Positions 33,541 to 38,994 are shown, numbered from the stretch's first letter. The stretch is DNA of 64,000 nt from an uncultured Planctomycetota bacterium (GCA_963823665.1 CAWGMQ010000008.1:640001-704000), one strand, 5' to 3'. The notes: generated by a model not told the origin, from the letters alone. Program-made: numbers and translations.

Positions 33541-35648
33541 CATTTGACGATGCGCCTTGCTATGTAAGCATTAAGGGAACGACTCCATAGATCGTAGGTC
33601 CGGCACTCTTGCCCGATTCCCTGCTCCCGGACTTCCCTCGATTGTTCGGCCTGGTTCAGACGCGGGCAACACGCCTGGACTCCGTTCGCGTCTAACCGCC
33701 CAGTCGGGTGACTCCGTGGGGTGGGTGCAACCGAACATCCCGAGATAGCGGTACGGCCGCTGGGTTGCGACCAAACGCCGCCACATCCCAAGCCCCAACG
33801 GGGCGGCCCCTGGCTCGGGTGAGGATCCCCCGCCCGCCGGCCCACTCTCACAACGCAGCGCGAATCTCGTTGAAAATGGCCCGAGAAAGAAGGGCAAAAA
33901 CATAGTGAACAACACCATCGAATTACGATGGCAATTTTTGGTGACGCGTGCCAAGAGCTTTTGCTATCACCGAAGAACGCCATCGCTTTGTTCCTATTCC
34001 GTTATTCCGATTGAAGTTACAAAGAATCTACTCCACCCGAAGCAATCGTCGAACCCATCGACAAAATGGCAAAAAGTGGCAATATTACGGGGGTCTTCCA
34101 GCATCTGTACACCAGTGTAAACCGGCCGCTTTTCAGCAGCGTCCAGTGGTCGTGATCCGTCGGTTGTTGAAGCTGGCTCAATGCAGTTGGAATCACGGTC
34201 TCTTCCTCGAAGAAATGGATTGAGATGAAGAAGCGCACCGTCAAGCATCCCGAGTAAGTCAGGCTTTCAGCCTGACGTCCTGTCGATCGGCCGTTCGGCC
34301 AGGAACGAGAACGAGTTGTTCCCCGAATTACCCGTTATTGGGGTTCATCTCAGCGGTTCCCACACCGCCCGCCGGCGCGCGCACGCACGGCTCCTATCTA
34401 GATGATCTACAAAACCCCCGATCCATTTGCGCCGAAGATGTGGAATTCGTCCATTTCGAGCGAGATTTCTCCGTCCCGGTCCTCCATCATCGGTGCTCCG
34501 CTTTCGGTCGTCCGCCCTCCGTCAGCCGTTCCCCCGCTCGGGTTCGTTCGCGAATTCCAGCCACGTTGTCAAGTCACCGTTCATGGGTGTTTTCGTGATC
34601 GAACCTTCACTCCAATTCCAAGTTACGCAGTTCCAGCCACCTGAGCTGTCTTGGGTTCGTTCGTCACATTTTGCGACTCACGGGATTGGCGTTTCTCTCG
34701 CAGCCGCACCTGAACTGCAGCGCCGATTCTCATCTCGCGAGGGCGAACGCGGCGCAACGCCGCTGCCGCGACCATTGCGTTCACCGCCGACGTGCACCCT
34801 GTCGAATCCCGATCCGGGTATCGTGTCATATTCTCTTCCCTCGTTCGTGAGATTCGTAAGATTCGTGGTTCGACGTCCCCCCGCCATGTCACACGGCAGC
34901 CTGGCCACGCTTCGCACGCTCCAAATAAGTAGGAGTGAATGGAACTAGATGGAACTAAACGGGACTCCTGGCCCCAAAAAAATCTCATTTTGCTTGCGGA
35001 CTTGAACCCCGTCCGATCGCTGGCCGGCCCCCCCTGAATCCGTACGGAAATGCTGAGTTCCAAAGAGGATAACGCCACCAGTCCCAATCCATGATCCCTC
35101 GGGCCAACGGGTGAAAACTCATCCTCCCGTGGTCCAGACCCGTCCCACGCGCGGCACAGCTCAAAATTCGGGTGGATTTCGCCGCGTACCGATCCCCCTT
35201 TACAAGCGCAGGCCGGCCCCATTTTCCCGATTGCACAGGCGTGGTCAGGCCGAGTTGAGATCCTCGAGCACGCGCTCGAGCAAACGGAGCAGTCATTCCC
35301 GGTTCCAGAGACATGGGTGGCTCGCCCCTCGCGCCGACTCCGGTGTCGGCGATCGAGACTGAGCTACTTATATTATGGACCCACTTTCGCGATTTGGCCA
35401 TTTCGTCGACCAGAAAACCTGGGATTTTTATCCGGCTTGTAATGGATACAACGACCAACTCGATCGAAACCCAATAAGGATTTGAGTTCGCGAAGCCGAA
35501 TCTCAAATCCCGGTTCAAGAAGCCCGTTGAGCGCACCCCGCAACCTGCTGTTAGGGAAACGGTTCGACACGAGAATGGGTGATCGAGGGTCAACGGAGGG
35601 AACCGAGAGGATCGCGCCGGGTCGCCTTGGGGGATCGCTCCCCCAAGG

Positions 35649-38068
35649 GCCGGGTAAGGAGGTGACGTTACCGCCACCCCCTCCCCTCAGAACTGCACGT
35701 GAAAGTTTCCCTTCATGCAGCTCAAGCCTTCACGAACGCCCCTCGCAGGACGCGGCCGCTTTCGTCAGTCGTTCTTGGACATGGATCTGCCGATGACAGT
35801 TGGCATGCAACAACTCCAGGTTGTCGGCTGTGCCAGAACCGCCCCGGCTGCGCCAGATGCGATGGTGGAGATGCAAGTCTTCCTCTGCGATCCGCAGCGG
35901 TTGACCACAGACCACGCATCGTCCCTCTTGTTCCTTCCATAAGTATTCGATCCGACCCCGACCTGCCAGCGTTTGGCTCAGTTGCCAACCCAGTCGTGCT
36001 TCCAGGTACAGTTCCCACTTCGGATCGTAGGGATTCACGTCGCTCCGGATCTTCACATAACGAATGATCTTCACTTTGGCTGCTTCCATCAACTGGATCG
36101 GCCGGCCTTGGCCTTTCTGGTCAAACAGCGTACCGGTGAAGACCCAGTGGCGGTAACCGTCTTGCTGGAAGTATTTCTCCTTGATCCACCTCCGGCCTTT
36201 GTTCTGGTGCCGTCGTCGACACCAACGCCACAATTTCTGGAAAATCCGGTGATCCACGTACGTAAAAGTGCGCTTGCTCGCCGCGTAACGGTGGTACATG
36301 GTCCAGCCCTTGATCTGCTGATTCAAACGCCAGATCATCTCTCCTGCCGTTAGGCTGCCCGAGCCGTCGATCGTTTCCTGTATCTTGTTCAAGAACGTCT
36401 TCACGTTTCGCAAGGACGGCTTGGTGAACACCTTGCCGCAGCGATAGCGTCGCACATTCTGCCCCAAGAAATCGAAGCCATCCTCCACATGCGTGATCTG
36501 GGTTTTCTCGTGGGAAAGTTCCAAGCCGCGTTCCTTCAAGAAATGAGCCACGAGAGGTTGCACTTGGTCACGGAGGAGTTCCTTTGAGATGCCCGTGATC
36601 AAGAAGTCATCCGCATAGCGGACCAGGTGGACTTTAAACTTCCGTTGTCGCCCGTGCTTCTCGGCGAACTGTTCCGCCAACAGCCGTTGCAGTCCATCCA
36701 GAGTCCAATTCGCCAGGACGGGTGAAATGATCCCGCCTTGAGGTGTTCCTTCCGTGGTGGCGAACCAGGCGTGCTTCTCCAGGAAACCCACTTTCAGCCA
36801 TTGCCCGAGCAACTGCCGGTCCATGGGGACGTGCGTCAAGAGCCAGTCATGACTGATGCGATCAAAGCAAGCTTTGATGTCCCCTTCGAGAATCCATGCT
36901 GGACCGCTCCGATTACCCAAGACAATATGAGATTGTTCCAGGGCGTCGGCACAACGACGTTCCAGCCGAAAGCCATAGGAATGGCCGTCGGCTCGAGATT
37001 CCGCAATGGGATCGAGGCCTAGCAAGTATAATGCCTGCATGGCTCGATCTGACATGGTGGGAATTCCGAGAGGACGTCGCTTGCCGTTGCTTTTGGGAAT
37101 GTACACCCGGCGGAGCGGTTGCGGTTGGTAACCGTGCCGACGCAGAGTGCTGAAAGCAGCCGACTTGGCTTCCGGTGTGTTCCAGAGAACTCCGTCCACA
37201 CCGGGAGTCTTCGCACCCGAATTACTGATGACTCGCAAAATGGCCAGGGCCCGGCCACTGAACGAGTGCGTGAGCAGATAAACCAGAGCCTTGACCTTAT
37301 TCCATCTGCCCTCCGCAACAGCCTTCACGATACGCGCCTGGAGCCGACGGACTGTGCGCCAGACTTTCTTCCATTCGATGGAGTGCCAGTCGGGCGTAAG
37401 CTCGGGAGCCGCACCAGCAAGCATTTCTGCCGCCGACATATCTGCTTGTCTCCCTGAGTCGGTTGGCCAAGGTTCTCTCGTGACGGAACACCTGAGGGAA
37501 GTCGGCACCGCTTTCGCGGTGAGGGGATGTCGTCCGTGGGAGGACTCACCCTCTATCCGATCGACTACCGAACGGCATTGGCTTGCTCCCTCATCCTCCA
37601 CCCGCCGCCCCATCGGCGACGCCTTACGACGGTCCTACCCCGAAGGGAGGGCGACGGGCTTACCACGTTCCACGGATGAATCACGGATGGTTTAGGCTCT
37701 GCCTCTCCGCCGGTGGCTCGGATGACGACGACAGGGGATGGGAAATCCCACTGTACCTGGCCACGTACCTTTTTGGTTCAAGCCTCTCAGCGCCTTTGGC
37801 TTGTTGGATCTCACGACGTTTATCGGCAGTTCACCTGGATTAGCCATGCCATCCACCCCTGGCCCCCGACCGCATTGGCGTTCGCAGTCGCCGGATTCCC
37901 TCACGGGATATCCAACCACCCGAAGGTGAGGTTACGTTGTCCCAAGAGCTTCGCACGGTCGGATTGCTCCGGCCGCACGTCCTGGTAGGGTTCCGGTGGT
38001 CGTACATCGGGTTATGTCCTGGTTGCAAATCCAGTCATAACAGACTCATCCGCAGCTTCGTTTCGCGA
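35649..38068 (-). mobile_element. Inner RT-encoding group II intron (CL/IIB-like), 2420 nt
   Basis: 5' TCGCGAAACGAAGC; DV GAGCTGCATGAAGGGAAACTTTCACGTGCAGTTC (35723-35690); DVI with bulged A ending TTACCCGGC; EBS1 TTCCCA (37744-37739) and EBS2 AGATCC (37811-37806) match the 5' flank. Confidence 0.92.
35730..37439 (-). CDS. ltrA: Group II intron reverse transcriptase/maturase with C-terminal HNH endonuclease
   Basis: [48 protein letters not shown] domain, CVVCG...HLHH...[14 protein letters not shown]; frame intact. Confidence 0.97.
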
Positions 38069-38994
38069 TTCCCACAGATCCGGACGTGTCCCATTAAGGC
38101 ATCCGGCTCGTCATGTCGCGGAGTCGCTGTCCCTCTCACGATCTGGCTGCCTTACGGGCACACGCTCTGAGGTCCAATGCCCTCGGCGTGGTTCCGGCGT
38201 CCAGTCCACGACACGGTACCCCCTTCGCTCCACAGGGTCTGGGAGGGCCCATTCCCCCGCTTCACTGCTACTACGGAGCACTCCGACTCCCGTCCGCCCA
38301 TTTCGCCGCACTTCGTTGCCTTCGTTTGGCGATACCACCCTTGCGTCTTGTTCGCTCCCAGCGACCCGACGCGGGGTCGTGGGCCGGGGAGTTGGTATTC
38401 CGGTTCCCGAGCCGGAAATGTCAGTGGAGACGGATGGGGCTCTCAGGTTCCCGAGCAACCCTCGCGTCCCTGCGCCATGTTCTTGGACCCCGGCAGGACC
38501 GAACACGCCAGGCCATTGCGGCGCGTCGACACAGCCCCCGCTTGTGTCTACAACGGAGGCTCCCACGATGAGTATTTCGGGGCTCGATAGCATGGCATGG
38601 AGACTCGCTGTCTACGCTTCGCAATGAGGGTCACCCCTCCCCACGCAAGACTTGCTTCCGGCTGCCGGCCAGGCTCTGCCGGGCGGGATTCGTTAACCCG
38701 CAGGGTCGCGATGAAAGGTTTCTGTGTTTCGAGGCACTTCCTCCTTTCTCGAGCTTTTCCTGACGCAAGGACACCCACCGATCAGCAACCGAAATTCCGA
38801 GGCGCTGACTCACGGCAACGACGTAGGCATCGAACATCATGAACTTCACTTGAGAAATCGTATACGACCTCTCCGTAGACCCATCTGCGATCGCCCACCG
38901 GGCGTGCCAGCTCCCCATCGGGGTGAACTCAACCAAAGCCGTCTGGCCGTCGACCAGCGCATCCATCCCGGCCGGCACGTAAGAAAGACCTCGT

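Follow-up and report, generated by a model that had tools for sequence, protein, structure and literature searches.

A mobile group II intron that appears to be programmed to home into domains V and VI of other group II introns

In a 64,000-nt stretch of DNA from an uncultured Planctomycetota bacterium (GCA_963823665.1, CAWGMQ010000008.1:640001-704000; the window, in which positions are counted from the first letter), the minus strand between 35616 and 38768 carries a group II twintron, in which a 2420-nt intron encoding a reverse transcriptase (RT) with an HNH endonuclease domain (the inner intron) interrupts an intron that lacks an open reading frame (ORF; the outer intron). The initial annotation, made from the sequence alone, had described this arrangement, and its coordinates and sequences match the window sequence read again. 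We conclude, with a probability of roughly 0.88, that the twintron was made by site-specific retrohoming and that the inner intron is a specialised parasite of introns. This conclusion draws on direct observations of the anatomy of the element, of base pairing between the inner intron and its target and the co-variation of that pairing, of a link between site occupancy and match to the target, of independent insertions into diverged hosts, and of recurrence in other organisms. The annotation had also proposed that the inner intron is programmed by its sequence to home into domains V and VI (DV and DVI) of other introns rather than having inserted by chance, a proposal supported by seven identical copies in three diverged host subtypes, by occupancy that depends on the match, and by co-variation of the exon-binding sites (EBS).

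Anatomy of the twintron and pairing with its target

The EBS1, EBS2 and EBS3 elements of the inner intron complement the intron-binding sites (IBS) that flank it at 6/6, 6/6 and 1/1 positions, respectively, and an EBS3 of this kind is a mark of IIB introns. EBS1 and EBS2 are, as annotated, exact complements of positions -6 to -1 and -13 to -8 relative to the insertion point, and position 35648 is IBS3 (+1, C). Folding of uninterrupted outer copies gave a DVI composed of a basal stem (UGGG/CCCG), an internal loop that contains the branch A and, distally, a long hairpin, and the inner intron is inserted after the sixth nucleotide of the 5' strand of this DVI, opposite the branch-A bulge. The insertion site had been annotated as the DV-DVI junction; the fold places it inside DVI, outside the linker. 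The segment 35616-35648 had been taken for the whole outer DVI; it is only the 3' 33 nt of that domain, and the upstream TGGGAA holds the 5' strand of the basal stem. Where the outer intron is uninterrupted, as in L085, these 33 nt directly follow TGGGA[A/G]. The target of EBS2, annotated as the 3' strand of the outer DV, does comprise the last five DV bases, but its sixth base is the first linker nucleotide.

The ends of the outer intron (TTGCG ... CGACCCGGC) are fixed by 13 uninterrupted copies of the subtype that we call type A and by an unoccupied outer target beside one copy (L015). Those of the inner intron are fixed to within one or two bases, with position -1 varying (A/G) and the 3' flank of the L005 copy departing from +3 on. 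Comparison of the empty L085 site with occupied sites revealed no target-site duplication, and ACCCGGC forms the 3' end of both introns.

A scan of the window with Rfam at gathering score (40 for RF00029, 34 for RF02012 and 49 for RF02005) returned three matches in the element, all on the minus strand, corresponding to two different DI models and one DV-DVI model (Table 1). Two DV matches had been predicted; that of the inner intron was found, with a branch adenosine that is bulged in the fold, whereas the outer DV fell below threshold. The inner DI belongs to a described class (RF02012), and the claim that this intron is a complete RT/HNH intron agrees with its own DI, DV and DVI and with a protein containing RVT_N, RVT_1, GIIM and HNH domains. 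The intron-encoded protein passes TIGR04416 (342.6 bits, cut-off 300), and among solved structures it is closest to chain 6ME0_C (E 7.3e-181), a maturase reverse transcriptase by its label, which we take to be the T.el4h protein. By sequence comparison, the inner intron is a putatively mobile group II intron of IIB type with an RT close to the T.el4h RT family.

The first two bases among 36 environmental copies of the inner intron, described below, are GT in 24, CT in 7 and TT in 5. The inner intron of the window departs from the consensus at both first nucleotides though it has apparently been mobile recently; a relative 98% identical to it (L141) starts UUGCG, and other relatives start GUGCG or CUGCG.

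Table 1. Features of the nested element, in positions of the window
Feature	Position	Strand	Evidence or remark
Outer intron, 5' part (DI-DV and DVI 5' strand)	38069..38768	-	ORF-less, type-A-like, starts TTGCG
Outer DI	38478-38692	-	RF02005 (group-II-D1D4-6), 135.8 bits
Outer domain V, 33 nt	38077..38109	-	fold; kept in all outer copies
IBS2 GGATCT, positions -13..-8	38076..38081	-	last 5 nt of outer DV and first linker nucleotide
IBS1 TGGGAA, positions -6..-1	38069..38074	-	last linker nucleotide and 5' strand of outer DVI basal stem
Inner intron, 2420 nt	35649..38068	-	5' end TCGCG, 3' end ...TTACCCGGC
Inner DI, 5' part	37862..38011	-	RF02012 (group-II-D1D4-7), 105.5 bits
EBS2 AGATCC, inner positions 258-263	37806..37811	-	6/6 complement to IBS2; co-variation in relatives
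EBS1 TTCCCA, inner positions 325-330, hairpin loop	37739..37744	-	6/6 complement to IBS1; co-variation
EBS3 G, inner position 364	37705	-	pairs with target +1 C
Intron-encoded protein, 569 aa from chosen ATG; frame open upstream to 37613	35730..37439	-	Pfam RVT_N, RVT_1, GIIM, HNH
Inner DV and DVI with bulged A	35649..35725	-	RF00029, 63.4 bits; fold
Outer DVI, 3' 33 nt (distal hairpin, branch-A bulge, basal-stem 3' strand, intron 3' end)	35616..35648	-	fold

Five ORFs that flank the element matched no Pfam family, and the outer-target motif does not occur again within the window.

Copies, target sites and relatives

The source genome (16.46 Mb in 12 contigs) contains 44 matches to the outer family, in three subtypes. 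Type A is ORF-less, 732-733 nt long and 96-98% identical to the outer intron of the window (13 full copies and one fragment), with which it has a common 5' boundary in uninterrupted copies; type B, ~95% identical to type A, combines the same ribozyme with a gene for a 434-aa RT that lacks an endonuclease domain (En-less); and type C is ~72% identical to the outer intron of the window. Seven full copies of the inner intron, 100% identical over positions 1-2420 (0 differences), and one 182-nt 3' fragment are present in the genome. The seven lie at seven different places, and their flanks begin to differ as soon as the inner intron ends. Upstream of all of them stands the outer DV followed by TGTGGGA[A/G], and downstream stands the 33-nt 3' half of DVI, ending in CGACCCGGC or TGACCCGGC, with unrelated sequence beyond. 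The hosts of this identical inner intron are five type-B introns, type-C introns and the type-A-like copy of the window. The type-B hosts differ from one another at 1-12 positions over ~1978 nt (14 variable columns), and an empty type-B copy, L023, is 1 nt from an occupied host.

Occupancy follows the match to the target. A genome-wide scan for CCGGATCNGTGGGNN returned 30 sites, and a control with the reversed pattern returned none. The inner intron is present at seven of the eight perfect intron sites (GGATCT.G.TGGGA[A/G] followed by C), compared with none of the 17 mismatched ones, comprising 14 with GGATCA (A at -8) and TGGGAG and three with TGGGGG and G or A at +1; the five non-intron sites are also unoccupied. 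The hypergeometric probability for 7/8 versus 0/14 is ~5e-5, a figure that makes the case look stronger than it is, because the copies are kin. Type-A copies differ from one another by a median of 10/733 nt and, given this divergence, are older than the burst of the inner intron, yet they are uninvaded; the mismatch at -8 is a candidate cause of their emptiness.

Relatives of the inner RT were found in 6/40 related genomes, at 57-89% amino-acid identity, and none was found at E 1e-50 in the same-genus genome G001, which is 84% complete. These relatives occupy unrelated sites outside introns; they begin with GTGCG or TTGCG, in alignment with the TCGCG at the start of the inner intron. Their aligned EBS1 and EBS2 complement their own flanks, with EBS2 co-varying with positions -13/-14 to -8/-9. 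The best register was allowed for cognate and non-cognate pairs alike, fixed columns being out of register for relatives with 9-nt loops, and under this scoring cognate EBS/flank combinations had a mean of 10.09 Watson-Crick pairs of 12, compared with 6.96 for 102 non-cognate combinations, two of which reached at least 10. For EBS3, a single alignment column complements +1 in 12/12 relatives, with all four bases represented. Close relatives with the same EBS at unrelated sites had been named as grounds for giving up programmed homing; the relatives in sister genomes carry different EBS that match their own sites, and so give no such grounds. In one related genome (L057, G021:C47), a non-intron-targeting relative is present as a direct tandem pair, in which the 5' GTGCG of the second copy begins right where the first copy ends.

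The outer family is present in 14/40 related genomes. Nine DV-DVI sites were read in these genomes; seven have GGATCT.G.TGGGA[AG], and no site is occupied. T at -8 is thus the common state, and the A of type A is derived.

To judge from public sequence, the junction recurs well outside this genome. The pattern CCGGATCTGTGGGRRNNGCGA was found at 28 loci in public genome contigs and at 63 in metagenome contigs; many of these matches are unrelated, and by our own estimate ~17 loci would be expected by chance in the genome contigs. An intron 5' end directly follows the site in 36/91 of them, with L136 a 37th recognised by eye, and at least 460 nt of the inner intron, 71-98% identical to that of the window, is present in 33 of the environmental junction loci. 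A DV lies upstream in 32/36 junctions (31 found by script from the DV 5' strand, and L195 by eye), and one further junction is too short. The EBS2 of these copies is mostly AGATCC, and EBS1 tracks IBS1, reading CCCCCA with TGGGGG (L170 and L188) and CTCCCA with TGGGAG; the exceptions are L141, with CTCCCA against TGGGAA, and the L162 group, with CTCCCT. The initial annotation had suggested looking for the same junction in the flanks of relatives, and these loci, with their co-varying EBS, supply it. In three metagenome loci (L171, L179 and L187), the inner relatives follow CCGGATCTGTGGG[AG]G.

Rfam, applied to 20 of the 36 loci, identified the inner intron as RF02012 in 20/20 and matched RF02005 upstream in 10; of the rest, L172 has an RF02012 DI upstream and nine gave no upstream match, six of them having <700 nt of upstream sequence. 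A search with a 3'-end pattern located the inner 3' end in only 7/36 loci, and Rfam was used instead. In the seven loci with both junctions the inner intron is 2379-2419 nt long, EBS3 fits +1 in six, and in most a DVI-like 3' half follows that ends in ACCCGG or a near variant. By record title, L141 comes from an Actinomycetota metagenome-assembled genome (MAG), with 98% RT identity, and L136 from an Isosphaerales MAG. A relative's 5' junction is spanned by a contig from an RNA library (X16 record 23); a contig from DNA (X1, with a loose end at 38069) carries an uninterrupted site. Together, these sequences suggest that homing into DV/DVI is a trait of a whole ribozyme lineage in many environmental bacteria. 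The DV catalytic triad of the environmental hosts reads AAC rather than AGC in 25/36, and RF00029 misses these DVs.

Seven metagenome contigs (L162, L194, L197, L200, L205, L213 and L218) contain a triple nesting, in which an RF02005 outer intron holds an RF02012 intron in its DVI, and this in turn holds a second RF02012-type intron at the homologous DVI position (for example, at 909 and 3280 in L200). The second-level site reads ...GCAGTTC TTA GGGGA immediately before the insertion, and over 460 nt the two RF02012-type introns share 97.6% identity. In three of the six contigs examined (L162, L194 and L197) the second intron is re-programmed, with EBS2 AGAACT, EBS1 TCCCCT and EBS3 C. Its EBS2 and EBS1 are the exact complements of AGTTCT and AGGGGA, and its EBS3 C fits the G that follows GGGGA in the DVI of the window's own inner intron, the +1 base itself lying beyond the contigs. 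Along with the 36/91 public junctions, this re-programmed intron further supports the proposal of sequence-programmed homing.

We compared the phylogeny of the ribozyme with that of the RT, using 27 rows for each tree (for the ribozyme, the 5' 600 nt, upstream of the ORF), with midpoint roots only and with both sets selected by flank or RT similarity. In the ribozyme tree all 18 DV/DVI-homers fall on one side of a branch with support 100/99, homing requires a single change in 100% of bootstrap trees, and the group of the window adjoins the L162/L200 group (99/98). In the RT tree, a 100/100 branch sets 13 homers apart; across it, the window, L141, L188 and L195 nest among non-intron-targeting relatives. 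Since the two trees disagree, they suggest that the targeting ribozyme and the RT module may have been swapped. The inner intron of the window has a DI of homer type, but its RT, DV and DVI are near those of non-intron-targeting relatives (compared with L040-L068 and L141-L218).

The 434-aa protein of the type-B copy L023 contains RVT_1 and passes TIGR04416 (330.2 bits, cut-off 300), no HNH domain was found in it, and the outer-family RT matches 6ME0_C at only E 4.9e-27. The RF02005 DI was also matched in L023, L005 and L032. With Rfam at E up to 10, the outer DV (38074-38112) gave only a sub-threshold match to RF04357 (16.1 bits, E 7.2); its fold is a hairpin of two helices with a 2-nt bulge, like that of a DV, but the triad G lies opposite A. 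Throughout this outer class (L070-L098 and the window), the middle base of the DV triad faces A instead of U.

Some copies of the outer intron are chimeras. In L003 a 5' part of type C is followed by a DVI 3' half of type B, while that of L005 is its own, and 19/22 differences between the outer intron of the window and type A fall in its last ~170 nt (38069-38240 and 35616-35648). Flank co-conversion, template switching or recombination are possible sources of such chimeras. We set aside flank co-conversion as the origin of the hybrid DVI of the window, retaining it as a side hypothesis, as 13 private differences in its last ~170 nt are accounted for by neither type B nor type C.

Outer introns and twintrons are clustered in the genome (G000:C11:551-581 kb, C6:911-923 kb and 1319-1328 kb, and C3:189-195 kb), with up to ~7 copies per 30 kb, and two outer introns stand in tandem 48 nt apart. 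The outer target (GGTGGGTGTCT followed by G[AC]CATCC) also occurs as short tandem units that resemble ligated exons, at L008 (G000:C8:1396090-1396271), L015 and L010/L012 (G000:C10:1458535-1460001). At L008, three target units come first, then a 5'-truncated inner intron (its final 182 nt, 98% identical) and then a DVI 3' half.

Weighing retrohoming against its rivals

Several observations weigh against site-specific retrohoming by a specialised parasite, or limit what the data can say for it. Of the perfect sites, L085 is empty. The A at -8 amounts to one mismatch, at the edge of the pairing, and type-A sites also differ at +3, +7, +18 and +22; because these four 3'-flank positions differ too, the cause of type-A emptiness is not isolated. 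Copies within the genome are not independent of one another, and the environmental set was chosen by target pattern and so gives no share of the lineage that lives in introns. Three of the 36 junctions (L171, L179 and L187) have no recognisable DV upstream; a truncated host could account for this, as could the co-transfer of the DV 3' end alone. The DI upstream of L172 is RF02012 rather than RF02005. Among the six triple nestings examined, two (L200 and L205) have the EBS of the first intron, un-reprogrammed, in the second, and L218 has Ns at the differing positions, although these three are probably collapsed metagenome assemblies. In the RT tree the DV/DVI-homers do not form one group, and the homing label needs two changes.

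The ribozymes themselves supply further points on the same side. The 5' end of the inner intron (38064-38068), UCGCG, departs from the GUGYG consensus. RF00029 does not match the DV of the outer family, and the distal stem of the outer DV in the window is irregular, so the outer intron of the window may be inactive. In addition, no spliced joint of 38069 to 35648 was present in short contigs of relatives (X1, X6, X15 and X16, at 90% likeness, with listed joint sides of <30 nt), a result that is silent either way on splicing.

Alternatively, outer and inner introns could move as one composite through the homing of the outer intron, with the inner intron never homing alone. Every twintron stands at an outer-type target (...GGTGGGTGTCT followed by GNNATCC), a composite route was named as possible by Mohr et al. 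(2010, PMC2882425), and only 3 nt separate the type-B hosts L001 and L006, and 5 nt the hosts L004 and L007, such that some copies may have spread in this way. Co-divergence at the type-B rate (12/1978), however, predicts ~15 differences among inner copies, whereas there are 0 in 2420 nt in hosts of three subtypes whose identity falls as low as 72%. An empty host 1 nt from an occupied one, and the presence of the same inner lineage in many different outer introns elsewhere, also disagree with this explanation, which we regard as improbable.

Less probable still is a single chance insertion that was spread by homologous recombination or gene conversion between outer introns, with no retrohoming specificity. 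Recombination among outer repeats does occur, as the L003 chimera and the concentration of the window's differences near its 3' end indicate, but the substrate for conversion is poor, with only 33 nt of homology past the insertion point and 72% identity for type C, and L005 has retained its own DVI 3' half. Gene conversion would also leave unexplained the 13-bp EBS/IBS match, its co-variation, the re-programmed second-level intron and the recurrence in other organisms. Finally, an assembly artefact, or one intron with a repeated DV/DVI for alternative 3' splice sites like that of C.te.I1, is scarcely credible: repeats are hard to assemble, both 3' ends read ACCCGGC, and alternative DV/DVI repeats are known in C. 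tetani (PMC4424553), but both junctions are seen seven times in this genome of 12 contigs and again in 36 independent contigs from public collections, an RNA-library contig (X16 record 23) covers the 5' junction of a relative, the inserted segment has its own DI, RT, DV and DVI and is thus a complete intron, and uninterrupted outer copies exist.

Under site-specific retrohoming, the RNA of the inner intron would recognise DNA copies of RF02005-type introns through 13 base pairs, with EBS2 pairing with the last five bases of the prey DV and one linker base, EBS1 with the last linker base and the 5' strand of the DVI basal stem, and EBS3 with the next base. Reverse splicing into the sense strand would then take place between nucleotides six and seven of DVI, at the IBS1/IBS3 boundary, after which the HNH domain would nick the bottom strand and target-primed reverse transcription (TPRT) would copy the intron into DNA. 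IIB introns with an endonuclease domain (En-plus) move by reverse splicing, bottom-strand nicking by HNH and TPRT, and we propose these steps here because they are established for that class. In the precursor RNA, EBS2 and EBS1 of the inner intron would hold the 3' strand of the prey DV and the 5' strand of its DVI, keeping the prey inactive until the inner intron leaves. Because this pairing would sequester strands of the prey DV and DVI, and because removal of the inner intron would restore the split DVI, the inner intron would be expected to splice first. The prey site is multi-copy, lies outside host genes and is conserved across genera, and for these reasons it may offer a renewable and host-neutral safe haven.

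A wider picture, to which we would give somewhat worse than even odds, is that of a widespread and old guild of intron-hunting IIB introns, in which the DI targeting module tracks the DV/DVI of the prey in an arms race between ribozymes. Possible escape by type-A introns through the linker (A at -8, 0/14 occupied), the apparent re-targeting of hunters onto the DV/DVI of their own class, and the putative swaps of RT modules are suggestive of such a race.

Nested introns elsewhere and the biology of the inner intron

The twintrons of Thermosynechococcus elongatus resemble ours in RT family, given the match between the inner RT and 6ME0_C, the T.el4h chain. In that organism, F3 (TeI3) introns lie within F1 (TeI4) introns at a DIV/ORF site (Mohr, Ghanem & Lambowitz 2010, PMC2882425). 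As in our genome, identical inner copies occupy diverged outer introns there, which was read as recent independent homing, and the first nucleotide can be other than G, TeI4h having a 5' T (PMC2882425). The inner intron in T. elongatus, however, is ORF-less and close kin of its host, whereas ours has its own RT/HNH gene and its host belongs to another RNA class (RF02005 versus RF02012) with an En-less RT. The target also differs, being the 3' strand of DV, the linker and the 5' strand of DVI instead of DIV or the RT ORF.

In Methanosarcina acetivorans, repeated site-specific homing into group II introns has produced up to five levels, described as ‘a perpetual homing site’ (PMC4424553), to which the environmental triple nesting is comparable. 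The Euglena chloroplast twintrons of Copertino and Hallick (cited in PMC4424553) have in common with ours that the internal intron breaks up the ribozyme core of its host and must leave first. They differ in being organellar and composed of degenerate introns, and they are not known to have a conserved, EBS-programmed DV/DVI target common to a lineage. One internal intron of Euglena psbF reportedly lies in domain V. For M. acetivorans, a 2003 study by Dai and Zimmerly reportedly concerns homing into intron ORFs, not DV/DVI, which would set that target apart from the one described here.

Other nested introns occupy DI or DIV. In Trichodesmium the insertion is in DI (Pfreundt & Hess 2015, PMC4649490); lycophyte mitochondrial twintrons use DIV and DI sites, with that of sdh3 in DI (PMC7049729); and in the red alga Porphyridium, where the site is in DIV, one inner intron occurs in several different outer introns (PMC4476101). 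Sequential splicing has been shown for some of these twintrons (PMC4649490, PMC7049729 and PMC4476101). In the available text of these three papers, none is described as a lineage bound to DV/DVI.

Class C (IIC) introns, which target terminator hairpins and integron attC sites (PMC4424553), are similar to the inner intron in that a whole lineage is specialised for one recurring, structured, host-neutral motif; they recognise a DNA stem-loop with short pairing, whereas the inner intron uses ordinary IIB EBS1/2/3 pairing with ribozyme-core sequence. A 2015 review lists three target specificities for bacterial group II introns, namely gene-like homing sites, terminators and attC (PMC4424553), and Waldern et al. 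(2020) report that other group II introns are the commonest intron neighbours, with no DV/DVI site described in the available part of that paper. No description of a DV/DVI-targeting intron lineage was found in the literature searched, which did not cover subscription journals and supplements, so that an earlier description is possible. Homing of introns into introns is thus already known, and it is for a lineage aimed at DV/DVI that we found no description.

Known intron-into-intron homing uses the dispensable DIV/ORF region, whereas here the most constrained part of another ribozyme is the target. The twintrons therefore offer a natural system for the study of parasite-of-parasite dynamics between retroelements, complete with a candidate escape mutation and re-programmed EBS variants. 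They are relevant to intron-finding pipelines, which skip twintrons, and to models of ordered splicing, and they bear on the growth of nested introns and of intron-rich ‘junk’ regions, as in this 16.5-Mb genome with its dozens of copies.

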